A DNA stretch of 31,983 nucleotides from an uncultured Planctomycetaceae bacterium (GTDB lineage Bacteria > Planctomycetota > Phycisphaerae > UBA1845 > UTPLA1), in contig CALLKH010000350.1 in the NCBI GenBank assembly GCA_938008425.1, positions 1 to 31,983 on the forward strand. Reading direction: 5' to 3'. Shown piece after piece: positions 2,245 through 17,324 of this stretch (position 1 is the stretch's first letter; each line of letters begins with the position of its first letter). Below the pieces are notes generated by a model. The model worked only from the letters and a program-made list of their open reading frames with translations, was not told where the DNA came from and did not search any database. Both the position numbers and the translations under genes were made by a program.

Positions 2245-4176
2245 CTATTTCGGCTGCGGAATAAACAGCGTGACGCTTGTACCCTTGCCCAGCTGGCTCT
2301 TCAGCAGAATGGTCGCGCGCATGGCCGCGATGGCGTGGCGGACAATGGAAAGTCCGAGTCCCGTGCCCCGGTCGCCGGAGTGCTGTCGCCCGGCGCCCGA
2401 ACGCGCCCGCTCCACCTGGTAGAATCGTTCAAAAACGCGATCCTGATCCTCGGTTGGAATGCCGCAGCCGTCGTCGCGCACCTCTATCGAGATCGACGGC
2501 CCCAGGCGTGCGCAGTGGATCCAGACGTGGCCTTGTGGGTCGGTGAATTTGATCGCGTTGGCGACGAGGTTGTCGAGCGCGAGGCGCAGCAGTCGCCCGT
2601 TTACCATGATCAATCGACAGTTCTCAGGGCATTGAATATCGAAGGTCAGGCCGCGAGCCTTCATGGCGTCATTGAACCGCAGGGCGAGATCGTCGAGCAG
2701 TTCCCGGAGCTGAACCTCCTCCAGGTGGAACTCGTTTGATGCGGCCTCGAGTCGCGACAGCTCGAGCAGATCGCTGACCAGTTCGGAGAGTCGATGCGTG
2801 TGTTTCCCAATGACATTGATGAACCGCGCGACGTTCTGCTGACCTTCGCCGGTGACCATCTGCTCCAGTGTTTCGACCGAGGCGCGAATGGCCGACAGCG
2901 GGGTGCGAAGTTCGTGCGATGCGTTGGCGACGAAGTCGGTCTTCATGCGAATCGTTCGCGTGAGTTCCGTGATGTCGGTCAAGACGACGAGTCGTCCGGC
3001 TGTTCCGGTGTCGCCGCCGTTGTCGCCCGCAGGCAGTCCGATTTCGGAACACCGCGCGAGCAGGTGAACGACGCCGTCGGGCTGTTCAACCTGAAGGCGA
3101 AACTCGCGCACGTTTCGCAATCCGGCGATCGTCGCCTCTTCCATCGGCGGCGCGTCGTCGTCGGGCTTTTCAGGATCAAGGAAGCCGCGAAGCTCGGGAC
3201 TTGAGATGCAATCGGACACGCGTCGGCCGACGAGAAGATCCTGCTGGGCTGTGGTCCGGCCGCGGCCGCCGCGGGACTGATCGGCGTTCTCCGGTTCATT
3301 CGGCTGCGGTGTGCCGAGAAGTCGGCACGCAACGTCGTTCATCAGCACGATTCGACCGTCCGGTCCGGCGACAATGACGCCCTCGGTGAGGCTTCGAATC
3401 AGGTTTTCGAGGTTCTTTCGCTGACGGTCGATGGTATCGAGCTGGCGGGCGATCGAGTCCCGCATCTGATTGAGTGAAACGCCCATCTGTGCGATTTCAT
3501 CGCCGCCGGAGACGTCGGTTCGCGCGGAGAGATCGCCGAGCGAGAGGCTTCGCGCCGCCTCGGTGATGCGCTGGATGGGCTTGCTCCACACCCAGGCGAG
3601 GCCGAGCGCGAGCACGAACGCGGCCGCGAGACCCACGGCGGCGGTCTGCCAGATCAACCGGCTCATGGTGGCGGTCTGTTCGGTGATGCCGGGAATGGGC
3701 ATGGCGACGCGGACGGTGCCGGCGGGACGACCCTGATCGTCCTCGACCCGGACTGCCACGTACTTCATTTCGCGGTTTACGGTGTCGGAGTGTCGTTCGG
3801 CGCCGCCCCAGCCCGAGGCGAGCGCGTCACGGATTTCCGGCCGGTCGCCGTGCGGCGCCATCGCGGCGGGGTCGGCCTCGGAATCAGCCCAGACGGTGCC
3901 GTCCGCGGCGACGATGGTGACGCGAATATCAGCTTCCTTGATGGCGCCAAGTTCGACTGCCACGCGCTGGAGTTCGTCGCGATGCCGGGCGTCGAAGAGA
4001 TTTCGCACTTCGTGTCGGATCGTGACGGCCTGGGCGAGAAGTCGCTGGGTGAGATTCCGTCGATAGGCGTTTTCGACTTCGGCGACGATGAGCCAGACCG
4101 ATGTTCCGAGGAGCAGCGCCATGAGCAGCGCGTTGCCGAGAAAGAGCTTCCAGAAAAAACGACCGGGCTTCGTCAA
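2245..4176 (-). CDS. phoR: PhoR-like membrane sensor histidine kinase (TM, periplasmic Cache-like, TM, HAMP, PAS, HisKA, HATPase)
   Basis: H-box DFVANASHELRTPLSAI, N-box LDNLVANAIKFT, G-boxes DDGCGIP / RVFERFYQVERARS / GTGLGLSIVRH; periplasmic HGDRPEIRDAL...RHSDT...MKYVAV segment typical of PhoR-type kinases. Symbol inferred from motifs and pairing. Confidence 0.8.
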   Translation of the reverse strand: MTKPGRFFWKLFLGNALLMALLLGTSVWLIVAEVENAYRRNLTQRLLAQAVTIRHEVRNLFDARHRDELQRVAVELGAIKEADIRVTIVAADGTVWADSEADPAAMAPHGDRPEIRDALASGWGGAERHSDTVNREMKYVAVRVEDDQGRPAGTVRVAMPIPGITEQTATMSRLIWQTAAVGLAAAFVLALGLAWVWSKPIQRITEAARSLSLGDLSARTDVSGGDEIAQMGVSLNQMRDSIARQLDTIDRQRKNLENLIRSLTEGVIVAGPDGRIVLMNDVACRLLGTPQPNEPENADQSRGGRGRTTAQQDLLVGRRVSDCISSPELRGFLDPEKPDDDAPPMEEATIAGLRNVREFRLQVEQPDGVVHLLARCSEIGLPAGDNGGDTGTAGRLVVLTDITELTRTIRMKTDFVANASHELRTPLSAIRASVETLEQMVTGEGQQNVARFINVIGKHTHRLSELVSDLLELSRLEAASNEFHLEEVQLRELLDDLALRFNDAMKARGLTFDIQCPENCRLIMVNGRLLRLALDNLVANAIKFTDPQGHVWIHCARLGPSISIEVRDDGCGIPTEDQDRVFERFYQVERARSGAGRQHSGDRGTGLGLSIVRHAIAAMRATILLKSQLGKGTSVTLFIPQPK

Positions 4177-4194: not shown

Positions 4195-4914
4195 TTAGTC
4201 CGCCGTGGGCGGTCTGAAGCTGTACCCGACGCCGCGAATGGTCTGAATCCATGCCGCGTGATCGGAAGCCGGGTCGGCCTGGGCCAGCTTTTTGCGAAGC
4301 GACGTGATGTGTACGTCGATGGTGCGATCCAGAACGACCGCGCCGTGGCCGAGAACCTTGTCAATGAGCGTTCCGCGGTCGAGCACCTTTCCGCTCGCGG
4401 CCATGAGCGCGCCGAGAAGCCTGAACTCGGTTGCGGTGACGCCGATGGGAATGTCGCCGACCTTGAGCTCGTGGCGATTCCAGTCGATCGAAAAGGGGCC
4501 CTCTCGCATGGCCTCTGAATCGGGGACGGGCGCTTCACCACGGCGCAGCATGGCGGCGACGCGCGCGACGAGCACCTTGGTTGAAAAGGGCTTGGTGACG
4601 TAGTCGTCGGCGCCCAGGGCGAATCCGACGAGCTCGTCGGATTCCTCGGCCTTGGCAGTGAGCATGATGATCGGAATCGCGGAGGTGGCGGGATCGCGGC
4701 GGCACTCCTGTGCCACCTCGTCGCCCGACATGCCGGGCAGCATGCGGTCGAGAAGGATGATATCCGGCGGATCGCGGCGGATTTCCTCCAGGGCCAGATC
4801 TCCACCATCCGCGTGACGCGTCGCGAAACCCTCGCGCTGGAGGTTGAAGCAGATCAACTCCGCGAGATCTTTCTCGTCTTCGACGACGAGTACGGTCTTT
4901 GTTGATTTTGTCAT
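4195..4914 (-). CDS. phoB: OmpR/PhoB-family response regulator
   Basis: Receiver (VLVVEDE, ILLDRMLPGMSG, IIMLTAKAEESDELVGFALGADDYVTKPFS) plus winged helix (TATEFRLL, RTIDVHITSLRKKL, IQTIRGVGYSF). Lies directly upstream of the kinase. Start at ATG 4914; 4959 is an alternative. Confidence 0.82.
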   Translation of the reverse strand: MTKSTKTVLVVEDEKDLAELICFNLQREGFATRHADGGDLALEEIRRDPPDIILLDRMLPGMSGDEVAQECRRDPATSAIPIIMLTAKAEESDELVGFALGADDYVTKPFSTKVLVARVAAMLRRGEAPVPDSEAMREGPFSIDWNRHELKVGDIPIGVTATEFRLLGALMAASGKVLDRGTLIDKVLGHGAVVLDRTIDVHITSLRKKLAQADPASDHAAWIQTIRGVGYSFRPPTAD

Positions 4915-5080
4915 GAGTGGTCGCTCGTTCTGCGGCTGGGACTTTGCGGTCATTAACATCTGATACTCACTCTCGTACTGGTATTCTCGCCCTCGACGGT
5001 ACTTCCGTCCATTCGACCGGCGTCAGACGCCGCTCCGGTAGCCTGTTCATGGCGATCCCCACGCCGATCATGGATCGCAT

Positions 5081-6559
5081 CTAGTCGTTCGCCGCTCGTT
5101 TATCCCCGTCGTTGATGCGGCGGTTGAGGTAGGCGTCCGCCCTTTCGGCCATGTCCTTAAATCGCCGGTCCTCGCAAAGACTCCGGTGATCCTTCACAAA
5201 CTGATCGTGCACCTCCCGGCAGCGCAGCGCCAGCACGGGCGGCAGCGCTCGAGCCAATCCCGCGATGCGTTGACAGCGCGCGGCGTCGTTTCCGATTCCG
5301 GCCGCATGGCCTCGCCCGAGCAAGCCGCCGAGCAGACGCGACATGTCTCTCAGTTCGGCGGGCTTGTTCACGTCTTTCCTTGATGGTTCCTTGGCGAAAG
5401 GGCTCTTGGGTCTGATGAGATACGATCGGCCCCCGATGTTCACACTTCCGATCCAGTCGGAACGATGGCATTGAAGCGCGAGATGGGCTCTCGCCACGAA
5501 CTCGCCGCGGTCCGCGTTCTTTTCAGCGGGGATCAGCGACGCGCGCTCGGCCGCGCAGGCCGGCTCCTCCTTCAGTTGAAGCAGCAGGTGAGGACTCCCA
5601 TTGGTCTTCTGATCAAGCCGCAAGAGAACGATGAACTTGGAGAGCCCCTGGCTTCCGGCGCTGCTCAGTCGGGTCCATTCCGCAATGTCGAGAACGGCGC
5701 CGCCGAAGTCCTCTTCGGATCGGCAACCGATCGCGGCGCGGCGACTCGCAGCCTGCGGTCCATCGAAGTGTCCTCGCCAGAGCGCGGCCAGGATTGACTC
5801 ACGCGTCCTTGCATCCACAGGATCGAGCAGGTCCGACGCCTGCCCTTTTTTCAGAACAATGCGTCGAAGCCGGGGCCTGTCGCCGTCGAAGACGTAATTC
5901 CCGAAGTATTCAGCGGCGTCTTCGTCGGCCGCCTTCTTCACCAGCTTTCGAACGGTCTTGTACCCGGCACTCAGTTCGCGATCGCCGACGCCGCCTGTCA
6001 GGGCCCTGGCGTACTCCTCGCACATCAGGTTGGTGATCGTTCGCAATTCTTCCGGCGTCAGGGTGAGATCCGCCTCGCCCGCGGCAAACTGCAGCGAGAC
6101 GGCGGCACGAAGCAGATCGAACTGGAATGGGCCGTGAAAAGCTTCGTCCAGATCAACGAGTGAGAAGTGAATGTCGCCGTTCTCGCCGGGCGAGCGAAAA
6201 GTTCCAGTGTTGCCGGGGTGCACATCCCCATGAAGCAGGACGTTGCTTCCTGCGTCATCCAACCAATCGGTGCAATGCGCCTTGCACCAATGATAGTAGA
6301 GATCCGCCGTGCCCCTGAAGAACTCATAAGGCGTCTCTCGAATACTTCGAAGCTTCATGGGGAGCCCGCGGGGATCGGCGTCCTTCAGGTGTGGATTCAG
6401 CTCCACGATTCGTTCGAGAACCGAAGGCGCCGGTGGAGCGTCGGCGAATGCCGTCGTCGTCGCGAAGAAGGAGAATGCGGCAAGGAGTACGACACGTGCG
6501 ATAGTCCGGTGCAGGACTTCCGCGACGGCGCCGTGTACTCGATGTCTCATGGTTGTCAT
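5081..6559 (-). CDS. DUF2252-family (kinase-like fold) protein with a predicted N-terminal signal peptide
   Basis: ETPYEFFRGTADLY, LLHGDVHPGNTG, VDLDEAFHGPFQFDLLRAAVSL, AGSQGLSKFIVLL, LLQLKEE and LGRGHA match the DUF2252 pattern as I recall it. N-terminus ...RVVLLAAFSFFATTTAFA|DAPP. Start 6559 or 6550. Confidence 0.75.
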   Translation of the reverse strand: MTTMRHRVHGAVAEVLHRTIARVVLLAAFSFFATTTAFADAPPAPSVLERIVELNPHLKDADPRGLPMKLRSIRETPYEFFRGTADLYYHWCKAHCTDWLDDAGSNVLLHGDVHPGNTGTFRSPGENGDIHFSLVDLDEAFHGPFQFDLLRAAVSLQFAAGEADLTLTPEELRTITNLMCEEYARALTGGVGDRELSAGYKTVRKLVKKAADEDAAEYFGNYVFDGDRPRLRRIVLKKGQASDLLDPVDARTRESILAALWRGHFDGPQAASRRAAIGCRSEEDFGGAVLDIAEWTRLSSAGSQGLSKFIVLLRLDQKTNGSPHLLLQLKEEPACAAERASLIPAEKNADRGEFVARAHLALQCHRSDWIGSVNIGGRSYLIRPKSPFAKEPSRKDVNKPAELRDMSRLLGGLLGRGHAAGIGNDAARCQRIAGLARALPPVLALRCREVHDQFVKDHRSLCEDRRFKDMAERADAYLNRRINDGDKRAAND

Positions 6560-6714
6560 TCTTTTCCGAGCCGCACCGGGAGTTTGCTTCGATTCGTTTG
6601 AATGAGGGCGATTCATTTCTTCGATCGTGAGCATCATTCGGACAATGATACCCGTCGTGTCATTTCTGGATAGTTTGACGAAGTTTGTCGTCGTCCTGCA
6701 ACCGCCCCCCTGCC

Positions 6715-6770
6715 GCTTCACGAAACATTAATGCTCTCCGCATTGAGGCCTAACGCCGTGGTTGTAGCGT
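6715..6770 (+). promoter_or_regulatory. Candidate Pho-box-like array (four 7-mers at 11-bp period) with a downstream -10
   Basis: GCTTCAC (6715), CATTAAT (6726), TCCGCAT (6737), GCCTAAC (6748), then 10 nt, then TAGCGT (6765-6770). Degenerate relative to CTGTCAT; the third unit is weak. Confidence 0.35.
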
Positions 6771-7029
6771 ACCGAACCAACGTGCCAGGGGAGATTGGGC
6801 GAAGCCGTCGTCGAATGCCCTGGCACTGCAAGTGTGACGGTCGACGCCGGCACAGAGTCGTCGAATTCCGGGGCGAGATTTCCGGAGGGGAAAGAAGCGT
6901 CGATGGCTCGGAAGGCGGCGACGCCGACGTCGCGGCCGAGGCGATTCTGCTGGTCGCCCGTCGGAATCGTATCAGCCGGCCACCTGGTCGGACTGATTGT
7001 GGACCGGTCGAATCTGGGACGGAGTTGAT

Positions 7030-7947
7030 ATGTCAGACAATCGACGCTCAATGCGGCCTGCAGGCCCTGGCTTCACACTGATCGAGCTGCTGGTGGTGAT
7101 CTCCATTATCGCCATTCTAATTTCCATCCTGCTTCCGGCGTTGAGCGCGGCACGGGAGAAGGGCCGCGAAACGCAATGCCGGGCGACTCTGCAGCAATTC
7201 GGCGCCGGCTTCATGGCCTATGCGAACTCCAACGACGAGTACCTCTGCAGCGGCGCGTTTGATCCCGAGATCGGAAACGGCCGCGACGGTCCGGTCGATG
7301 CCGTCGGCTGGGTGGCGGATCTCGTCAACGGCCGAACCGGGGAACCGGGCAGGGCGCTCTGTCCGTCGAATCCCGCCCGGTTTAACCAGAAGCTTGGTTC
7401 CAATGGAAACACCTATTCGCCGGCAGACGCGCAGGCGCTCGTCGAGCTCGGCTACAACACCAACTACACACAGTCCTGGTACATGGGCCGAACCGAATGG
7501 CGGCCCGGCACGGGTTCAAACCTGAAGAGTCTTGCCAATACCTACGGCCCGCTGAGCGTCAGCAATCTCAGGAGCGTGCAGTCGTCGCGCGTCCCGATTC
7601 TCGGGGATGGTCGAACCGATACGAACGATCTCGTTCTCGGCGAGCGATCCGTCAAGACGATGACCGACGGCCCGTTCGCCGGACCCTACGGCACCCAGAA
7701 CTACGCCGACTTTGGCCCCGCCCACGGGATGGGCGGATACAACCCGCTCAAGAAGCACAATCGAATTCGCGCGAACGTCCTCTTCGCCGACGGCCATGTC
7801 AGTTCATTCATGGACGGCGATCGAGATGGAGAGTTCGCGCTTCTTACCTCGGCTAATCCGCACGGCCAGAAGGATCTGAGCAATGAAGTCTTCGACGGCG
7901 TGCTGAGCATTGGTCGGCGATCAGCGAATCGCTTCACGCTGCAGTAG
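7030..7947 (+). CDS. Prepilin-type N-terminal cleavage/methylation protein, DUF1559-like, with H-X9-DG-type C-terminal motif
   Basis: G|[56 protein letters not shown] (H-X10-DG here). GGAG at 7021-7024 precedes ATG 7030. Confidence 0.9.
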
Positions 7948-8086
7948 GGGTCTTTGAATGAGTCGTGATGGGGAGCCTGTCGGCGTCATGGCGGCCGGCC
8001 GGGCAGAATCCGCGCCAGTTGAAGCCGTCCGACGCGCCATGAGTCAAGCCACGAGAAACATGAATCAGACACTGGGAGAGAAGTTC

Positions 8087-11000
8087 ATGAGAAGAAACCA
8101 AATTGTTCTGCTGCTGACCGGCGTTCTGGCTCTGATGACAACGGCGGCGGCAAACGCGCAGGTTGTCATCAACGAAGTGCTTCAGAACCCGGAGGGCAGT
8201 TCCGACGAAACGTGGGAATACATCGAGCTGTACGGCCGCCCGGGCATGGACCTGACGGGCTACGCGATCATGGTCATCAAGGGCGGTCGTGATCTCGACG
8301 ACAATGGCGTCTTCGATGTCGGCGAAGAGGTGCCGGAAATCGATGAGGCGTTCAGTCTCGACGGACTGTCGCTAGGAGCGAACGGCTTCCTCGTGCTCTA
8401 CAACGATACCGGCGGGTTCAGCAATCTGATTGATCTGAATCTGATCGATCCGGCCGCCACCATCGCATCATTCAACGCCACCCACATCCCGTCGACCGAC
8501 GTGGCCGGAAAGCTGGGCAACGACGGCTCGTCCACCTACGTGCTCGTTCGAAAGCGGTTCGATCACTCCATCAATGGATCTGGCCAGAGCGTCTACGGCC
8601 CGGACTACGCGGTTCGAAAGGACGTCCGGCACGACGTGAACGCCGACGGCGTTGTGGATTTCGGCACCGAGGTGAATCTGATCAACACGTTTGAGCCGGC
8701 GATGCGGGTTGAGCCATACCAAATGGTCGACGATCTCGCCTGGTCGCACGACAACGGTAGGGAATACCACCGCGATCCGCAGTTTGAGATCGAGGAGACG
8801 CCGGGCTTCAATCCCGACATGGTCAGCCGCCTGCGAAACTATCTCTCGAATCCGCAGCGCGGTTACGCCACCAGGGGCAACGCCGGCGGACCGTTCACCA
8901 TTCAGCAGACGTCAATCGCCGACGAGTCGTTCATTTACGGCGAGATGACCACGAGCTTTCCGGGTCCGGGGTTCTTTGAGTACACGACCGCCACCGATCC
9001 GGTCTCGGGCTACATTCGCACCAAGGCGCCAACCGATCCGGCTGCCACGCCGTACAGCGGCTCATGTGATCCGGAGCCGGACAATCAGCCCAATCCCGGT
9101 TGCGCGGCGAGCGCAGGCGGGGCGTATCACATGACGGACCTCGCCTTCGTCGGCTTCAAGCTCACGCCGGGTACCTTCAACGATCATCCCACCGATGCGA
9201 ACCTTCGACAGTTCCGATTCGTTCACGGCGACTTCAACAACGACGGGCAGATCAATCAGATCGACCGGCGGCTGATCGAGGATCGCGTCGGCCGAACCCT
9301 CGATGACACCGAGCCCGCGACCTACGACCCGACGCCGGGCCAGCCGCTCAGTGGAGACGAGGTCGCTTACGATCGCTACCTTCGCCAGGGTGTCGAGTTT
9401 CAACTGGTGCTTCACATGCGTGAAATGGACACCGACGACGGTCCCGGCGGCACGAATGCCGAAGACGTGACACAGGACGACGTCGCCGCCTTTCTGGCGC
9501 TTTGCCCGGTCTGCGGAAACGTCGGAACGCCGCCCGCGGTTCGAATCACCGAATATCTCTACAGCGGCCTGGGCGGAGAATTCGTCGAATTCACCAACCT
9601 CTCCGGCGGACCGGTCGACCTGACGGGCTGGAGCTACAGCGACAACGCCCGCCTCGCGGGGCACGTCGATCTCTCGGCCTTCGGCGTCGTGCAAGACGGC
9701 GAGTCGGTCGTGCTGACGGAAATCGATCGGGCGCTCTTCGCGGTTCGCTGGGGTCTGTCGGGCGTGAAGATCATTGGTGATGTCACGGTCAATCTCAGTC
9801 GAAACGATGAGATTAATCTCTACGACGCGTCGGGCAATCTGGCCAACCGATTGACTTACGGCGATCAGGATTTTCCCGGCTCGATTCGGACGCAGCGATT
9901 CTCCGGCTGGCCGTGCGATACCGCGGTCGGGGCCAACGCCATCGCGAACTGGCGGCTGTCGCTCATCGGCGGTGACGCCCAGTCCTCGTTCTTCTCCAGC
10001 GCCGGCGATGTCGGCAGCCCGGGTTCCTTCGCGCTCAGCGACTGCTCGACCACCATCGCAGTCGGCGCCTGCTGCACCGCCGGCATTTGCGCCAGCGGCC
10101 CCGGCATTACGCAGGCCTTTTGTCAGCAGACGGGCGGCATCTACCAGGGCGACGACGTCAGTTGCGGCAGCGTCACATGCCCGCAGCCGAGCAACGCGGT
10201 CGTGCGAATCACCGAGTACATGTACAGCAGCCCCGGCGGTGAATTCATCGAAATCACCAACATGGGTGCGACGCCGGTCGATATGACCGGCTGGAGCTAT
10301 GACGACTCGGCGCGAATCGTCGGTGCATTCAGCCTCAGCGCCTTCGGCACGCTTGCTGCGGGTGAATCGGCTGTCATTACGGATGCCGACGCGGCGGCAT
10401 TCAGGACCTTCTGGGGCCTTGCCGGTTCGGTGAAGGTGATCGGCAACCTGGGGCTCGCCGGTGTCGGCAACAATCTCGGCCGAAACGACGAAATCAACAT
10501 CTTTGATGCCTCCGGCGCCGTCGTCGATCGCCTGACCTACGGCGATGAGAACTTTCCCGGCACCGTCCGGACGCAGAACGCCTCCGGCTGGCCATGCAAC
10601 TTCGCGGTCGGCGCGAATGACATCACCGGCTGGGTGCTCTCGGCGGTGGCCGACGCACAGGGGTCGGTCACGCTGGGCGGCGCGACGGGTCGGCCCGGAT
10701 CGTTCACGCTCGCACCCTGTGCCGGCGGCGATCCGATCGGCGCGTGCTGCAATCTCGACGGCACCTGCAATGATGCACTGACGCAGGTCGTCTGTGAGTC
10801 GGGCGGTGGCACGTGGCAGGGCGCGGACACCTTGTGTGCGAATGTCCAGTGCTCGCAGCCGTCGGGGCCGATGATGAGAATCACCGAGTGGATGTACAGC
10901 CCGGTCGGAACCGCCGGTGAGTTCGTCGAATTCACCAACATCGGCGCCACGCCGGTGGACATGACAGGCTGGAGCTACGACGACGACAGCCGAATACCCA

Positions 11001-11590
11001 CCACGGTCAGTCTGTCGGCGTTCGGCGTGGTCGCGCCGGGGGAATCGGTCATTCTTGCGGAGTCCGACGCGACGGTGTTCCGAACCGAGTGGGGGCTCGC
11101 AGCGACCGTCAAGGTCATCGGGCTCAACGGCACCAATCTCGGTCGAAATGACGAAATCAACCTTTTTGACGCGACGAATACGCTGGTCGATCGGTTGACC
11201 TTCGGCGATCAGCTCATCCCGGGTTCGATCCGAACGCAGGGCGCCACCGGATGGACCTGCCTTGAAAACCTCGGCGCGAACGACGTCATCACCTGGCAAT
11301 TGTCAGTGGTGGCCGACGCCCAGAATTCGATTGCTGCGACGGGCGGTGATGTCGGCAACCCGGGTTCATACGTGCAAGCCCCGTGCGTGACGCAGTGCTG
11401 CCCCGGCGACCAGGATGAGGACTACGCCATCACAATCGGGGATATCCCCGGCTTCGTGAACTGCGTTCTTGGCAATACGCCCGTCGGCGACTGCGGCTGC
11501 TCTGACATGAACGGCGACAGCGTCATGAACGGACTCGACATCGGGCTCTTCGCGGCCGTTCTGGTGAACAGCCCCGGCGCCTGCCCGTGA
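8087..11590 (+). CDS. Large secreted protein with four lamin-tail-like domains, cysteine-rich GACC linkers and dockerin-like Ca-binding modules
   Basis: Signal peptide MRRNQIVLLLTGVLALMTTAAANA|Q; N-terminal VVINEV...EYIELY; three repeats starting (V/M)RITE at 9539, 10202, 10874; GACC...C...C...GG..QG....C linkers after the first two; dockerin-like GDFNNDGQINQID (9227) and C-terminal CPGDQDED...SDMNGDSVMNGLDIGLF. Confidence 0.8.
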   Translation: MRRNQIVLLLTGVLALMTTAAANAQVVINEVLQNPEGSSDETWEYIELYGRPGMDLTGYAIMVIKGGRDLDDNGVFDVGEEVPEIDEAFSLDGLSLGANGFLVLYNDTGGFSNLIDLNLIDPAATIASFNATHIPSTDVAGKLGNDGSSTYVLVRKRFDHSINGSGQSVYGPDYAVRKDVRHDVNADGVVDFGTEVNLINTFEPAMRVEPYQMVDDLAWSHDNGREYHRDPQFEIEETPGFNPDMVSRLRNYLSNPQRGYATRGNAGGPFTIQQTSIADESFIYGEMTTSFPGPGFFEYTTATDPVSGYIRTKAPTDPAATPYSGSCDPEPDNQPNPGCAASAGGAYHMTDLAFVGFKLTPGTFNDHPTDANLRQFRFVHGDFNNDGQINQIDRRLIEDRVGRTLDDTEPATYDPTPGQPLSGDEVAYDRYLRQGVEFQLVLHMREMDTDDGPGGTNAEDVTQDDVAAFLALCPVCGNVGTPPAVRITEYLYSGLGGEFVEFTNLSGGPVDLTGWSYSDNARLAGHVDLSAFGVVQDGESVVLTEIDRALFAVRWGLSGVKIIGDVTVNLSRNDEINLYDASGNLANRLTYGDQDFPGSIRTQRFSGWPCDTAVGANAIANWRLSLIGGDAQSSFFSSAGDVGSPGSFALSDCSTTIAVGACCTAGICASGPGITQAFCQQTGGIYQGDDVSCGSVTCPQPSNAVVRITEYMYSSPGGEFIEITNMGATPVDMTGWSYDDSARIVGAFSLSAFGTLAAGESAVITDADAAAFRTFWGLAGSVKVIGNLGLAGVGNNLGRNDEINIFDASGAVVDRLTYGDENFPGTVRTQNASGWPCNFAVGANDITGWVLSAVADAQGSVTLGGATGRPGSFTLAPCAGGDPIGACCNLDGTCNDALTQVVCESGGGTWQGADTLCANVQCSQPSGPMMRITEWMYSPVGTAGEFVEFTNIGATPVDMTGWSYDDDSRIPTTVSLSAFGVVAPGESVILAESDATVFRTEWGLAATVKVIGLNGTNLGRNDEINLFDATNTLVDRLTFGDQLIPGSIRTQGATGWTCLENLGANDVITWQLSVVADAQNSIAATGGDVGNPGSYVQAPCVTQCCPGDQDEDYAITIGDIPGFVNCVLGNTPVGDCGCSDMNGDSVMNGLDIGLFAAVLVNSPGACP

Positions 11591-11642: not shown

Positions 11643-11686
11643 TGCGGCCGATCGGTTCTTTTTGAGCCGATCGGCCGCATCTTTTG
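11643..11686 (+). terminator. Intrinsic terminator after the LTD gene
   Basis: TGCGGCCGATCGGTTC-TTTTT-GAGCCGATCGGCCGCA (16-bp stem with one G:T) followed by TCTTTTG. Confidence 0.75.
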
Positions 11687-11930
11687 TCTCGCCCCGCGCC
11701 CATCGACCAGAGTCCAATCCTCTCGACCCGATCCGATTCACCCTGAATCGGCCGGCCCATCCGGCGCGGGTTCACGGCCACCATCCGGCATGAACCGCAA
11801 AATTCGCCGGATGCCGTACGGTGCGATTGGTATTCCCGGCCGGCGCCGTTTCCGATCACAAGCCGTCGTCGCGATTCGCCGACAACAGGAAGGGAGCGTC
11901 CACGCGCGCACCGCCGAGGGAGTCATCATT

Positions 11931-13292
11931 ATGAGACTGACGATCATTGGAAGCGGCTATGTCGGCCTGGTCACCGGAACCTGCCTGGCCGACTGCGGCA
12001 ATCATGTCTGCTGCCTCGACATCGACGAGGCCAAGATTCGCTCGCTCGGCGCCGGCAAGTGCACCATCTACGAGCCGGGGCTAGAGGAGCTGATGAACCA
12101 GAACATCCGCGCCGGCCGGCTGACGTTCACGACGGATGCCGAGAAGGCGGTTGCCCACGGCGAGATCATCTTCCTTTGCGTCGGCACGCCGCCGAGCGCG
12201 GACGGATCGGCCGACCTCTCCGGCATCGAGGCGGCGGCCAAGGTCGTCGCCGGGCGCATGACCGAGGCGAAGATCGTCGTCATCAAGTCGACGGTGCCGG
12301 TGGGAACGGGCGACCGGATCGAGAAGATCATGCGTCAGATGACGCGGCATCCGGTGGATCTCGTCAGCAATCCGGAGTTTCTCAAGGAGGGGGCCGCGAT
12401 CAGCGACTTCCGCGAGCCCGATCGCGTCGTCATCGGCGCGGTCAATTCGGAAGCGGCCGAGGTGGTCCAGCAGCTCTACCGGCCGATCACACCGACGAAC
12501 ACGCCGATCATCCAGGTCAGCCGGCGTGCGGCGGAGATGTGCAAGTATGCGGCGAACAGCTACCTGGCGATGCGAATCAGCTTCATCAACGAGATGGCGG
12601 CGATCTGCGAGCGGGCCAATGTCGACATTGATGAAATGAAACTCGGCATGGCGACCGACCGGCGCATCGGCTCGCATTTTCTCTATCCCGGCGTCGGCTA
12701 TGGCGGAAGCTGCTTCCCGAAGGACGTGCAGGCGCTGGCGAACGTCGCGGAGAAGGTCGGCTGCGAGCCGCGAATCCTCAGGTCCGTGCACGACACGAAT
12801 GAGCGACAGAAGCACGTGTTCATCGATCGCATTCGCGACGAGTTCGGCGGCGGCCTCGCCGGCAGGAGATTCGCCGTCTGGGGTGTCACATTTAAGGCAC
12901 GAACGGACGACATTCGCGAGGCACCGGCGCTGACGATCATTGAGGGCCTGCTCGAAGCCGGCGCCGACGTGACGGCTTACGATCCGCAGGGGCTGGACAA
13001 TCTGCGGGCGATGTACAACGACCGGCTGACTTACGCGGGCGACGCGTACGGGGCGCTCTCGGACTGCGAGGCGCTGCTCGTTCTCACGGAATGGGACGAG
13101 TTTCGAAGCCCCGACTTCGATCGCATCCGGCAGTGTCTCAAGCAGCCGGTGATCTTCGACGGCCGCAACCTGTACAACGCGAAATGGATGCGACGAAACC
13201 GATTCACGTATTACTCGATCGGCCGTCCGCCGGTGCATGCGGATGCCGAGGAGCGGGCTCGCGCCGAGGAATACGCCGACGCGCTCGGATGA
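11931..13292 (+). CDS. ugd: UDP-glucose/GDP-mannose 6-dehydrogenase family protein
   Basis: IIGSGYVGLV Rossmann motif, IYEPGLEE, FLCVGTP, VIKSTVPVGT, SNPEFLKEG, AEMCKYAANSYLA, PGVGYGGSCFPKD (catalytic Cys), FKARTDDIRE, IFDGRN. Start at ATG 11931. Confidence 0.95.
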   Translation: MRLTIIGSGYVGLVTGTCLADCGNHVCCLDIDEAKIRSLGAGKCTIYEPGLEELMNQNIRAGRLTFTTDAEKAVAHGEIIFLCVGTPPSADGSADLSGIEAAAKVVAGRMTEAKIVVIKSTVPVGTGDRIEKIMRQMTRHPVDLVSNPEFLKEGAAISDFREPDRVVIGAVNSEAAEVVQQLYRPITPTNTPIIQVSRRAAEMCKYAANSYLAMRISFINEMAAICERANVDIDEMKLGMATDRRIGSHFLYPGVGYGGSCFPKDVQALANVAEKVGCEPRILRSVHDTNERQKHVFIDRIRDEFGGGLAGRRFAVWGVTFKARTDDIREAPALTIIEGLLEAGADVTAYDPQGLDNLRAMYNDRLTYAGDAYGALSDCEALLVLTEWDEFRSPDFDRIRQCLKQPVIFDGRNLYNAKWMRRNRFTYYSIGRPPVHADAEERARAEEYADALG

Positions 13293-13335: not shown

Positions 13336-14028
13336 TCAGTCGGGCTTCCTGAATAGACACAGGTCACGATCATTTCTCGCGACAATGGCGAGGCCGTATT
13401 CGCGCGCGATCCAGTCCATGGTGCGATGCGAGTAGAAGGCCACGTGGGTCGGATCGCGCGCGTACCACCAGCTTGCGATGGAATCGGGTCCGGCGTGAAA
13501 ACGCGTCATGACGGCCAGAACGCCCCGCGCCGCGACGAGGGCCGCCAGGCGGTCGAAGTCTTCGCGCGGCCGGGTGAAGTGTTCGATGGTTTCGGTCGAG
13601 ACCACGATGTCGAACGCCGGCGTCTCGGCAGCGATCGCCTCGAGCGGCCTCGTGTAATGCGGGTCGTAGCCGACGGCGTCGTAGCCTTCGCGGCGAAACA
13701 ATTCGACGAGGACCTGTTCGGCGTGACAGCCGTAGTCGAGGAGGGTGGCGGGCGACGGCTGATGTTCGACCACGAGCGCGATCAGTGGTGCAAAGGTGGC
13801 GACATACCCGGCATCGTCGATTGTATTTCGATGACTGTCATAGCGGGCCTTTTCGCCCGCGGTGTCGAGATGCAGGCGCTGCGGCACAGAGATCATGTCG
13901 CAAGTCTGACAGTGCCGGAAACTTCGATGGTGGGCGTCATCGAGGTCGACGACGGCCGACACGCAAAGCGGACAGTCTTGCGGCGATGCGACGGCGTCGG
14001 GTTCGGTTGATCGGGGGCTTGAAGTCAT
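13336..14028 (-). CDS. Class I SAM-dependent methyltransferase with an N-terminal CxxC...CxxC Zn site
   Basis: CPLC...CQTC, EKARYDSHRN, LLDYGC, GYDPHY, FDIVVSTETIEHF, WWYARDPTHVAFYS. Confidence 0.8.
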   Translation of the reverse strand: MTSSPRSTEPDAVASPQDCPLCVSAVVDLDDAHHRSFRHCQTCDMISVPQRLHLDTAGEKARYDSHRNTIDDAGYVATFAPLIALVVEHQPSPATLLDYGCHAEQVLVELFRREGYDAVGYDPHYTRPLEAIAAETPAFDIVVSTETIEHFTRPREDFDRLAALVAARGVLAVMTRFHAGPDSIASWWYARDPTHVAFYSHRTMDWIAREYGLAIVARNDRDLCLFRKPD

Positions 14029-14286
14029 CGTGCAAGCGTCATTTCTCTTGAGTTCGGGCAGCGGATTCGCATCTGATTGGGCGTCCCACGTGGGGCGGAT
14101 TCGCCGGATTTTTTCGGATTAGGCTCGGTCCCAGGATGCTGATTTTATCGGACTTCAGGGGTCGATTCAGCGTCAAATTCAGCAGCAGCACGATGTTAAG
14201 GAACGGTTAACGGCGACCTAGGGAATCTCCCCGACGCCCGCCTGTGTTTTTTTCCTAAGTTTCATGGCTGGATAGCGTTACGCGCC

Positions 14287-14339: not shown

Positions 14340-14609
14340 TTCACCTGCCCTCAAGGGCAAGTCGAAGTGTAACCGAAATCAATTCCGTAGGGATTCGAGG
14401 AGCGGAAAGGATCGACTCTGGTGGAACCGGGTTGATCCAGTCGGTGTTTCGTCGACTTTGCTGTCTGGCGAGGGAAATCTGGGGGCGGTGCCGTGGCGCA
14501 GCTTCGGAAGACCCAGCTTCCGGAGTCGCAGTTTATTGACTGGTTTTGTTGCCCCGTCGGCTTTTTTGACGGGACGACCCTGCTAAAGAAAGCTTGAGCG
14601 GTGGGAAAC

Positions 14610-17324
14610 ATGGTCACTCTCTCGACGGATCGAATGATTCAGAGCGACAAGGACGTCGCGCCGGCCTCCCGTTATGTCGACTTCGGATTGACGGAGAACG
14701 CGCTGCGCGTGTTACGCGCCCGCTACCTGGAGAAGAACGAGGCCGGACAGTGCACCGAGACCCCCGATGATCTCTTCGATCGGGTCGCCGACACGATGGC
14801 GGAGCCCGAGAGCAAGTACGGCGGCAATGAGACGACCCGCAGCGAGTGGAAGACCCGCTTCAAGCGTCTCATGATGTCGCGCAAGTTCATGCCCAACAGC
14901 CCGACGCTGATGAACGCGGGTCGGTCGATGGGCATGCTCAGCGCCTGCTTCGTTCTGCCTGTGCCGGACTCGATCGACGGGATCTTTGATTCGATCAAGC
15001 ACACCGCCCTGATCCAGAAGGCGGGCGGCGGAACGGGTTTCGCCTTCGATGCCCTGCGGCCGACGGGCGATTACATCCGCTCCAGCGGCGGAACGACGAG
15101 CGGTCCGATCAGCTTCTGGAAGGCGTTCAGCGAGGCGACCAACGCGATCCAGCAGGGTGCGTTTCGCCGCGGCGCGAACATGGGGATGATGTACGTCCAC
15201 CACCCGGACATTCTGAAGTTCCTCTACGCCAAGCAGGACCTGACGCAGTTCACGAATTACAACATCTCGGTCAAGATGACGGACGAGTGGATGGAGGCCT
15301 TCCTTCGGGAGCCGAACTCGCCGCACCTGACCCGCAACCCGCGCAACGGGCAGGAATTCTACATTCCCCGCGATGTCGTCATCAGCGAATACTGCGTCAA
15401 GGATCTGATCCGAAAGGAAGACTACGACGGCAGCGCGCCGGTGTACTCGCGCCAGGAAATCTGGGACATCATCGTCAAGCACGCCTGGCAGACCGGCGAA
15501 CCGGGCGTCGTCTTCATGGATCGCATCAACGAGGCGAACCCCACACCGCATGTCGGCCGCATGGAAGCGACCAACCCGTGCGGCGAGCAGCCGCTCCTGC
15601 CGTACGAGGCGTGCAACCTCGGCAGCGTGAATCTCGGGCTCTTCATCAAGAACGAGTGTTCGCCGTCGGCCGAGGTTGACTGGGACGCCCTGCGAACCAC
15701 GGTGCACGAGTCGATTCGCTTCCTCGACAACGTGATTGACGCCAACAACTACCCGCTCGAGCAGATTCACGACATCTGCACGGCCAATCGCAAGATCGGC
15801 CTCGGCATCATGGGCTTCGCCGATGCGCTCTATAAGCTCGGCGTGCGCTACAACTCGGAAGAGGGCGTGGCGTGGGGCGAGAAGTTCATGAAGTTCGTGA
15901 ACGACGAATCGCACAACTACTCCGAGAAGCTCGCCAAGGAGCGCGGAAACTTCCCGAACTGGGCCAACAGCCACTGGGATACGAAGTACCACCGGCAGAT
16001 GCGCAACAGCTGTTCGACGACGGTCGCGCCGACGGGCACGATCAGCATCATCGCCGACTGCTCAGGCGGCATCGAGCCGATGTTCAGTCTTGCTTTCTAC
16101 CGCAACGTTCTGAAGGGACAGGCGGAAGGCAAGACGCCGATGATCGAAAGCAACGAGACTTTCGAAAAGGTCGCGAGAGATCGCGGCTTCTACAGCGAGG
16201 GACTCATGGATCGAATTGCCAAGGAAGGCACCCTCGCTCATATTGAAGACGTTCCGGAGGATGTCAGGCACGTCTTTGTCTGCGCCCATGATATTGAACC
16301 CGAGTGGCACGTTCGCATGCAGGCGGCGTTCCAGCGGCATTGTGATTCTTCCATCAGCAAGACCATCAACTTCCCCCATGACGCCGACGCCGCGGAGGTC
16401 GAAAAGATCTACCGCATGGCGTACGAACTTCGCTGCAAGGGTGTGACGGTCTACCGCGACGGCTGCCGATCGAGCCAGCCGATGGCGCTGAAGGACTCCG
16501 AGAAGAAGCACAAGGCCGGCACCACGGGCAGCGAGGCGACGGGTGACTCATGCCCCCCGTCGGCCGCGGCGCAGACGAAGCCGGCCACGACGGAGAACGA
16601 GCCGTCGGCATCCCGGGACGTGCGTGAGGACAAGCCGAGGATCACCACCGAGGTGAATCTCTTCGGCGAACGGGTGACGAAGGTGCAGAAGCCGCAGCAG
16701 ATCCTGGAGCCGCGGGAACTTCCCGCCATCACCAGCGGCCTGCGGATCCGGCAGCAGACGCCGTTCGGCAACATGCACATTCAGATCACGGTCGATCCGC
16801 GAACCGAGCGGGAGATGGAAGTTTTCGCCCAGCTCGGCAAGGGCGGCGACATTGCGACCAGCGATCTGGAGGCGATCTGCCGAATGATCAGCCTCTGGCT
16901 TCGCGCCGGCGGAAACCTCCAGCATGTGATCAAGCAGTTGTCCGGGATCGGATCGCACCTGCAGATTCCCACCCGCGACGGTCGCATCATGTCGCTCGGC
17001 GACGGCCTCGCCCAGGCGCTCAAGCGGTACACCCGGGCGAAGGAGCGACACGGTCTGCGGACGCTGCTTCTCGGCGAGATCGATCCTTCGGACATCGAGC
17101 GGGCGCCCACCGAGGGACGGACGAATGGCAACGGCAACGGCCATTCCGCTCACAGCGAAGAAGTCGACACCGACACGACGCTGGAAGTCAGCCGACTGCT
17201 GGAGCCCCCGGCGAAGCTGGCCGCGCGAGCCGCCTATCGTCTGAAGTGCCCGGAGTGCGGGAGTGATCTCGACATGGGCGAGGGCTGCACAAAATGTCAC
17301 AGCTGCGGATATGCCCAGTGCTAG
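14610..17324 (+). CDS. nrdJ: Vitamin B12-dependent (class II) ribonucleotide reductase with C-terminal TSCPD-like domain and Zn ribbon
   Basis: FMPNSPTLMNAG, QLSAC-like MLSACFV, GGGTGFAF, TNPCGEQPL (thiyl radical Cys), CNLGSVNL, RKIGLGIMG, TTVAPTGTISII, SISKTINF, KGVTVYRDGCR; C-terminal CPEC...GEGCTKCHSCGYAQC. Start uncertain (14601, 14610 or 14634). Confidence 0.93.
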   Translation: MVTLSTDRMIQSDKDVAPASRYVDFGLTENALRVLRARYLEKNEAGQCTETPDDLFDRVADTMAEPESKYGGNETTRSEWKTRFKRLMMSRKFMPNSPTLMNAGRSMGMLSACFVLPVPDSIDGIFDSIKHTALIQKAGGGTGFAFDALRPTGDYIRSSGGTTSGPISFWKAFSEATNAIQQGAFRRGANMGMMYVHHPDILKFLYAKQDLTQFTNYNISVKMTDEWMEAFLREPNSPHLTRNPRNGQEFYIPRDVVISEYCVKDLIRKEDYDGSAPVYSRQEIWDIIVKHAWQTGEPGVVFMDRINEANPTPHVGRMEATNPCGEQPLLPYEACNLGSVNLGLFIKNECSPSAEVDWDALRTTVHESIRFLDNVIDANNYPLEQIHDICTANRKIGLGIMGFADALYKLGVRYNSEEGVAWGEKFMKFVNDESHNYSEKLAKERGNFPNWANSHWDTKYHRQMRNSCSTTVAPTGTISIIADCSGGIEPMFSLAFYRNVLKGQAEGKTPMIESNETFEKVARDRGFYSEGLMDRIAKEGTLAHIEDVPEDVRHVFVCAHDIEPEWHVRMQAAFQRHCDSSISKTINFPHDADAAEVEKIYRMAYELRCKGVTVYRDGCRSSQPMALKDSEKKHKAGTTGSEATGDSCPPSAAAQTKPATTENEPSASRDVREDKPRITTEVNLFGERVTKVQKPQQILEPRELPAITSGLRIRQQTPFGNMHIQITVDPRTEREMEVFAQLGKGGDIATSDLEAICRMISLWLRAGGNLQHVIKQLSGIGSHLQIPTRDGRIMSLGDGLAQALKRYTRAKERHGLRTLLLGEIDPSDIERAPTEGRTNGNGNGHSAHSEEVDTDTTLEVSRLLEPPAKLAARAAYRLKCPECGSDLDMGEGCTKCHSCGYAQC

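Follow-up and report, generated by a model that had tools for sequence, protein, structure and literature searches.

The window analysed here is a stretch of 31,983 nucleotides from an uncultured Planctomycetaceae bacterium (contig CALLKH010000350.1), and the system in question is a cluster of five genes within it. A gene for an exported DUF2252 protein is followed on the same strand by phoB- and phoR-type genes, and an operon of a DUF1559-type prepilin and a secreted multi-LTD protein runs divergently from it (Table 1). Housekeeping genes flank the locus, namely gatB, UDP-glucose dehydrogenase, ribonucleotide reductase and ligA. The assembly (G000) is fragmented, with a completeness of 86.7%, and the relatives are metagenome-assembled genomes (MAGs) of the Phycisphaerae. 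Across these relatives, DUF2252, prepilin and LTD protein form a conserved trio. With a probability of roughly 60%, this trio belongs to the Pho regulon of the Phycisphaerae, and phoBR has moved next to it in the genus of the window. Open reading frames (ORFs) were called in six frames, and the window proteins were scanned with Pfam and NCBIfam profiles. The original prediction, made from the letters alone, had listed the ORFs and domains of the kinase, the regulator, the DUF2252 protein, the prepilin and the LTD protein, and all of them were borne out by these scans. The signal peptides and the terminator near 11643 that it described are also real.

Table 1. Genes and sites of the cluster, in window coordinates.
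Feature	Position	Strand	Basis
phoR-type sensor histidine kinase	2245..4176	-	Pfam; N-terminal sequence; orthologues beside pst operons
phoB-type OmpR-family response regulator	4195..4959	-	Response_reg and Trans_reg_C; best NCBIfam match PhoB
Exported DUF2252 protein, predicted circularly permuted protein-kinase-like phosphotransferase fold	5081..6559	-	PF10009, signal peptide, motifs
Divergent intergenic region DUF2252/prepilin, ~470 bp	6560..7029	.	Sequence; single block conserved across genera
Pho-box-like site TTCAC-N6-TTAAT, two units 11 bp apart	6717..6732	+	Conserved block; pattern scan; word enumeration
Type IV prepilin-like pseudopilin, DUF1559-type	7030..7947	+	N_methyl, TIGR02532, marginal DUF1559, leader
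Secreted multi-LTD protein, 1167 aa from M44	8087..11590	+	Pfam LTD, segment-wise scan, sequence
Intrinsic terminator closing the prepilin-LTD operon	11643..11689	+	16-bp stem 11643-11679, 11 GC pairs, then T tract

The conserved unit is the trio of an exported DUF2252 protein, a divergent DUF1559-type prepilin and an LTD protein, not the linkage to phoBR. DUF2252 was found in 13 of 41 relatives and on 29 public contigs, and its neighbours were mapped by tblastn and ORF clustering, with crude ORF picks serving as the gene calls of the relatives. Linkage was counted at 27 distinct DUF2252 loci in Phycisphaerae MAGs, which represent several genera and at least three families. An orthologous prepilin is present at 21 of the 27 loci, as is an LTD gene (21 of 27). 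Apart from a protein of ~700 aa at six loci, no further recurrent gene family occurs at them. Most often, DUF2252 is divergent from prepilin-LTD, and rearranged loci keep the link: the LTD gene is downstream of DUF2252 and co-directional with it in G037, a small LTD gene is upstream and co-directional in G011, and the layout is convergent in L068. In several genera, the protein encoded after the prepilin consists only of an N-terminal LTD-like domain and a C-terminal dockerin-like segment, and the prepilin is then preceded by another, small LTD protein that has a PEP-CTERM anchor. At every module locus, the N-terminal LTD-like domain is conserved in the protein encoded behind the prepilin.

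The original prediction had placed all these genes together with phoBR in one candidate module. The linkage of prepilin, LTD protein and DUF2252 is kept across genera and families, but phoBR is not a conserved member. It adjoins the cluster only in the genus of the window (G001-G004) and in two other lineages, L069 and G034, in the latter on the opposite side of the cluster. At L069 the order is DUF2252-phoB-phoR, with neither a prepilin nor an LTD gene nearby. Elsewhere phoBR is unlinked to the cluster and lies, for example, 170 kb away in G017. One member of the window's genus (G004, locus L036, G004:C21:53000-71000) has lost DUF2252; its prepilin-LTD genes are divergent from phoB-phoR, and the box is kept. 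The neighbour found at six DUF2252 loci is a protein of ~660-870 aa with a weak DUF3352 match (L020:6924-9119, L021:5650-7890, L025:11091-13082, L059, L067 and L071). It belongs to other genera and is absent from the window.

By sequence and synteny, the two-component pair is a PhoB/PhoR orthologue, as had been claimed at the outset. The regulator comprises a receiver domain (Response_reg, 86.8 bits) and a winged-helix OmpR-type output domain (Trans_reg_C, 74.1 bits). Against the PhoB model TIGR02154 it scores 229 bits, which is under the equivalog cut-off of 296.2; even so, no family scores higher, CreB trails by 34 bits, and no other protein of the genome matches the PhoB model as well. The kinase contains a transmembrane segment, an sCache-like periplasmic domain, a second transmembrane segment, and HAMP, PAS, HisKA and HATPase domains. 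Its best NCBIfam matches are WalK, PnpS and PhoR, all under their cut-offs and covering the C-terminal half only (223 bits against 334 for PhoR TIGR02966, and 282 against 400 for PnpS NF046044). Synteny decides the question. In G024, porin-pstS-pstC-pstA-pstB-phoU is immediately preceded by full-length orthologues of kinase and regulator. Next to pst operons (porin-pstSCAB-phoU), orthologues of the pair also occur in G045, G104 and G039, and two genomes, G022 and the complete G009, have them beside PhoU_div-PiT.

The divergent intergenic region contains a candidate site for this regulator. Alignment of the region from five genomes yields TTCAYnAAAnnTTMAY as the sole conserved block, and in the window a degenerate third unit, CGCAT, follows the two regular units at 6739-6743. 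The 11-bp spacing of two TTMAY units is the geometry of OmpR/PhoB sites, from which we infer that PhoB may bind here. When a strict pattern, TT[CA]A[CT]-N6-TT[CA]A[CT], was scanned over all fetched loci, it was present in 14 of the 21 module regions, and 5 of 13 pst loci have it just ahead of pstS or the porin gene. In G024, the pst operon has four to five tandem units right in front of it. Upstream of pstS or porin, the box occurs in G099, G029, G045 and G058; it likewise precedes phoB in G029 and PhoU_div in G022. As a guard against circularity, every 5-mer repeating at an 11-bp phase was counted with no preset motif. The top words are CTTAA (6 of 12), TTAAC and TCTTA in 12 pst promoters, and CTTAA (10 of 21), TTAAT, TTAAC and TCTTA in the 21 module regions. 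The binomial p-values for the pst-promoter words refer to a GC-rich genome background and overstate the significance.

The positions of the sites point in the same direction. The complete genome G009 has nine box matches, two of them coding and seven intergenic. Two of the intergenic boxes lie between phoBR and PhoU_div-PiT and one in the module; the others precede a HisPhos-CHAD-Ppx operon, a second LTD/PEP-CTERM gene, another PEP-CTERM protein and a pyridoxal-phosphate enzyme, with one box each. G002, which belongs to the genus of the window, has three matches in 4.4 Mb: one in the module, one in the PhoU_div-PiT promoter and one in coding sequence. G000 itself has a single PiT operon (PhoU_div-PiT), with a box ~390 bp upstream. 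The TTAA-type sites of G000 other than those in the module and the PiT promoter precede a LacI-type regulator, a methyltransferase and uncharacterised genes, with no clear phosphate link. Matches to TTAAY-N6-TTCAY in G002 stand before unrelated genes and are no commoner than the control pattern. The 121-bp gap between DUF2252 and phoB has no Pho box. Pho control of the module appears well supported computationally by the shared box and its positions, because the same phased word occurs in pst promoters and module regions, and because the few intergenic copies lie at phosphate genes and the module.

Two further sites are recorded. In G009, the box TTAATCCTTTCTTAAT lies ahead of the histidine-phosphatase/CHAD/Ppx-GppA operon (L094, G009:C1:2507000-2513000), a candidate Pho-regulated operon for polyphosphate. 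Its orthologue in G000, the ppx operon (C203:9051-12237), has no strict box. The window has a second exact match to the pattern at 14195-14210, the near-palindromic TTAACCGTTCCTTAAC, in a low-GC gap between a methyltransferase gene (13336-14028, minus strand) and the ribonucleotide reductase gene (14601-17324, plus strand). The whole orthologous locus of G002, gap included, has no strict match, and this site may therefore be due to chance.

The original prediction had observed that the window lacks pstSCAB and phoU, and none was found in the whole assembly at its stated completeness either. Neither a true PstB nor any PhoU is present in G000, G002, G003, G005 or G017. In an order-wide survey, PstB occurs in 3 of 25 genomes of the window's family, compared with 14-21 of 24-25 in three sister families. 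Judged by these counts, the family therefore keeps PhoBR and PhoU_div-PiT yet has mostly lost Pst/PhoU. The retention of PhoBR with PstSCAB-PhoU mostly gone raises the question of the route by which phosphate is sensed in this family.

DUF2252 protein matches PF10009 at 154.2 bits (cut-off 22.3) over profile positions 2-391 of 392. Its true start is the ATG at 6559 and not the GTG at 6721. The protein begins with a signal peptide that ends AFA|DA, and the orthologues also carry one. The catalytic motif LHGDVHPGN (HGDxHxGN), the metal-binding VDLDE (DxDE), the Gly-rich loop SGSQG and the Lys of LQLKEE show no variation among 11 orthologues. In the sequence, C-lobe motifs precede N-lobe motifs, which is a permuted order and agrees with the published kinase-like fold with swapped N- and C-lobes of DUF2252 (PF10009, PKinase clan) (PMC9758233; bioRxiv 10.64898/2026.09.18.752743). 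All kinase catalytic motifs are thus retained, and phosphotransferase activity is predicted. The structure model is confident, with a predicted local distance difference test (pLDDT) score of 89.8. A wide search with VIA-align gave weak matches (Z 4.1-4.6) of residues 245-387 to the N-lobes of APH-type kinases, that is, small-molecule kinases of the aminoglycoside, macrolide and choline type. Foldseek found no match of the model in the PDB, and a sequence search of solved structures returned nothing for the DUF2252 protein or for the LTD protein.

The prepilin has the leader ...AGPG|FTLIELLVV, a class III signal peptide with G at -1, F at +1 and E at +5, followed by a hydrophobic helix. It matches N_methyl at 26.5 bits and TIGR02532 at 28.3 bits (cut-off 16.3). 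The match to DUF1559 (PF07596) is marginal, with 24.3 bits against a cut-off of 23.3 over profile positions 2-55 of 268 only. DUF1559 pseudopilins are greatly expanded in the Planctomycetota, and the genome of the window has 22 other prepilin genes. That the module prepilin is one of many interchangeable copies is ruled out: its orthologues are 48-81% identical across genera and form a distinct orthologous group, and the paralogues resemble it at the N-terminus only. No prepilin peptidase or assembly gene is present inside the cluster, to which this search was confined. The original prediction had taken prepilin and LTD protein for a possible pilin/cargo pair. A complex prediction of the globular part of the prepilin with the N-terminal LTD-like domain, run with alignment inputs, scored 0.01, which counts neither for nor against binding. 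A second divergent pair of an LTD-protein gene and a prepilin gene is found in the same genome (G000:C275:1060-3071), without a box.

The LTD protein consists of a signal peptide, a divergent N-terminal LTD-like domain, a dockerin-like segment, three LTDs and a C-terminal dockerin-like segment. It scores 201 bits overall against PF00932; three segments score 58-74 bits each, and the N-terminal segment 25.8 bits, below the cut-off. Dockerin type I (PF00404) reaches 27.5 bits over the whole protein, and each Ca-binding segment alone 17.5 bits against a cut-off of 22.9. Two alike Cys-rich linkers separate the LTDs (window 10040-10190 and 10710-10850, residues ~695-745 and ~918-965). Their pattern, GACC..G.C....C...GG.(Y/W)QG.D..C....C, matches no Pfam family. 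The AlphaFold model of the N-terminal region has a pLDDT of 52.9 and is too poor for a fold search, and the ESM Atlas look-alikes of residues 66-520 are hypothetical Planctomycetota proteins only. A UDP-glucose 6-dehydrogenase gene (window 11790-13292) lies directly past the terminator of the operon. Its homologue in B. subtilis is tuaD, which is Pho-induced. The dehydrogenase was ruled out as a member of the unit, as it lies beyond the terminator and its adjacency holds within the genus only.

On the favoured reading, the trio would respond to phosphate as follows. At low phosphate, PhoR would phosphorylate PhoB, and phosphorylated PhoB would bind the box and switch on the prepilin-LTD operon. 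It may also turn on the divergent DUF2252-phoBR transcript, which would amount to autoregulation. All three products would leave the cytoplasm: the pilin would be matured and built into a pseudopilus, the LTD protein would reach the cell surface, and the DUF2252 protein would act as an extracytoplasmic phosphotransferase. The biochemical role is presumptive, and the most likely purpose would be the capture or processing of polymeric phosphorus, or a phosphate-dependent remodelling of the surface. The sign of the regulation is not readable from the sequence. Activation at low phosphate is favoured because the box precedes the prepilin-LTD operon much as it precedes pst operons.

Several points weigh against membership of the trio in the Pho regulon. 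The compared genomes are kin, so that the counts are not independent. The strict box is missing from 7 of the 21 module regions, and the remaining LTD genes of G000 lack it. The site of the window itself is a weak variant, TTCAC/TTAAT, and falls in the ~1% tail of random 500-bp windows. With palindromic TTAA cores, the sites are of ambiguous orientation. Genome-wide counts show no enrichment of the motif: G000 has 64 copies where ~50 are expected, G009 has 9 where the control gives 14, and the corresponding figures in G002 are 3 and 11; the evidence is therefore positional. Neither the LTD protein, which has no catalytic domain, nor the conserved neighbours contain a recognisable nuclease or phosphatase domain, as judged by Pfam, the segment scan and neighbour clustering, and no hydrolase is encoded in the operon. 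Finally, PhoB sites can repress, as at orfA-pit in Sinorhizobium.

An unlikely alternative holds that the adjacency of phoBR arose by an accidental rearrangement in one genus, that the box serves another regulator or is a promoter element unrelated to phosphate, and that the trio is a pseudopilin/adhesin cassette of a generic planctomycetal kind, serving for instance attachment or the scaffolding of dockerin-bearing enzymes. It agrees with the unlinked position of phoBR in most genera, with the lack of genome-wide over-representation of the motif, with the many prepilin paralogues of Planctomycetes (at least 23 in the window's genome), and with the LTD/dockerin 'planctosome' scaffold proposed for freshwater Planctomycetes (PMC6461901). 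Against it, pst promoters and module regions, counted independently, have the same phased word at the top. The intergenic sites in G002 and G009 are few and lie at PiT, phoBR and ppx in addition to the module, and phoBR joined the cluster in three arrangements (the window's genus, G034 and L069).

A second alternative, which is very unlikely, concerns the DUF2252 protein. Instead of being an effector, it would assist PhoR signalling from the periplasm and stand in for the lost PstSCAB-PhoU input, and prepilin-LTD would be a separate neighbouring Pho target. In the window's genus and L069, DUF2252 immediately precedes phoB-phoR in the same orientation, and no terminator was called in the gap; L069 shows this arrangement without a neighbouring prepilin or LTD gene. 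The family is largely without PstB and PhoU, and the periplasmic Cache-like domain of PhoR could receive such an input. In most genomes, however, DUF2252 lies beside prepilin-LTD and far from phoBR, as in G017. Moreover, G004 has phoBR and no DUF2252, G037 carries both Pst and the trio, and about half of the Pst-less family members have no DUF2252.

The PiT-type low-affinity transporter operon is repressed by PhoB in some bacteria, and PhoB activates pst operons in all studied systems known to us. That the box represses, making the module a phosphate-replete surface feature shut off on starvation, is likewise very unlikely: the same box does lie upstream of the PhoU_div-PiT operon for a low-affinity transporter, and a DUF2252 protein of Burkholderia was depleted under limitation of inorganic phosphate (PMC13700237), but before pst operons the form of the box is the same and its upstream distance comparable.

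Membership of the trio in the Pho regulon thus remains the preferred reading, and the cluster is a real, new and clade-specific candidate Pho-regulon module, so that the original prediction is borne out in part. The predicted Pho box on a conserved trio names a testable condition, which is phosphate limitation. Together with it, a first candidate Pho box and core Pho regulon are proposed for the Phycisphaerae, comprising phoBR, pst, PhoU_div-PiT, ppx-CHAD and LTD genes. To our knowledge, DUF2252, DUF1559 pseudopilins and stand-alone bacterial LTD proteins are large families without an assigned physiology. A more far-reaching proposal, to be taken as speculative and rather unlikely, is a new phosphate-starvation apparatus in a family without PstSCAB-PhoU. 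DUF2252, a dedicated pseudopilus and LTD proteins would capture or process polymeric phosphorus, such as extracellular DNA or polyphosphate, at the surface, or would feed a phosphate signal to PhoR. If true, this would give DUF2252, a DUF1559 pseudopilin and stand-alone bacterial LTDs their first physiological roles.

The prepilin shares the class III signal peptide G|F, Glu+5 and the hydrophobic N-terminal helix with GspG/ComGC pseudopilins and planctomycetal DUF1559 proteins. Its globular part of ~260 aa is unrelated to GspG/ComGC, and the NCBIfam matches span residues 25-76 only. In contrast to type II secretion and competence systems, the cluster has no secretion or assembly genes.

We know of no DUF2252 protein with a known substrate. 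The Phycisphaerae proteins share with the PF10009 family the profile match (154 bits) and the catalytic-loop and metal-binding motifs placed ahead of the Gly-rich loop and Lys segment. They differ in the signal peptide, the linkage to pilin and LTD genes, and the candidate Pho box. Secreted atypical kinases of the CotH/Fam20 type are often fused to LTDs, and they may resemble the present case in that a kinase-like enzyme outside the cytoplasm is tied to LTD modules. DUF2252 is another family, however, with kinase and LTDs on separate polypeptides. For bacterial LTDs, roles in envelope tethering and, in ExeM, a contribution to DNA degradation have been proposed (PMC6085458). Shewanella ExeM is likewise secreted and has an N-terminal LTD right after the signal peptide, and LTD nucleases of its type are tied to phosphorus scavenging from extracellular DNA (PMC6085458). 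In contrast, the LTDs of the window stand alone with dockerin-like and Cys-rich segments and have no nuclease or phosphoesterase domain.

The two-component pair shares with PhoB/PhoR (PhoP/PhoR, SphR/SphS) an OmpR-family regulator, a PAS/HisKA kinase and orthologues beside pstSCAB-phoU, whereas both of its proteins fall under the NCBIfam equivalog cut-offs. Its periplasmic Cache-like domain and HAMP domain set the kinase apart from E. coli PhoR and align it with WalK, PnpS and the PhoR of B. subtilis. Classical PhoBR relays its signal via PstSCAB and PhoU, both of which are mostly absent from the host family. The Pho box of Synechocystis SphR is CTTAACCT (PMC1906773), and the box described here resembles it in the core CTTAAY and in the tandem direct repeats with an 11-bp periodicity.

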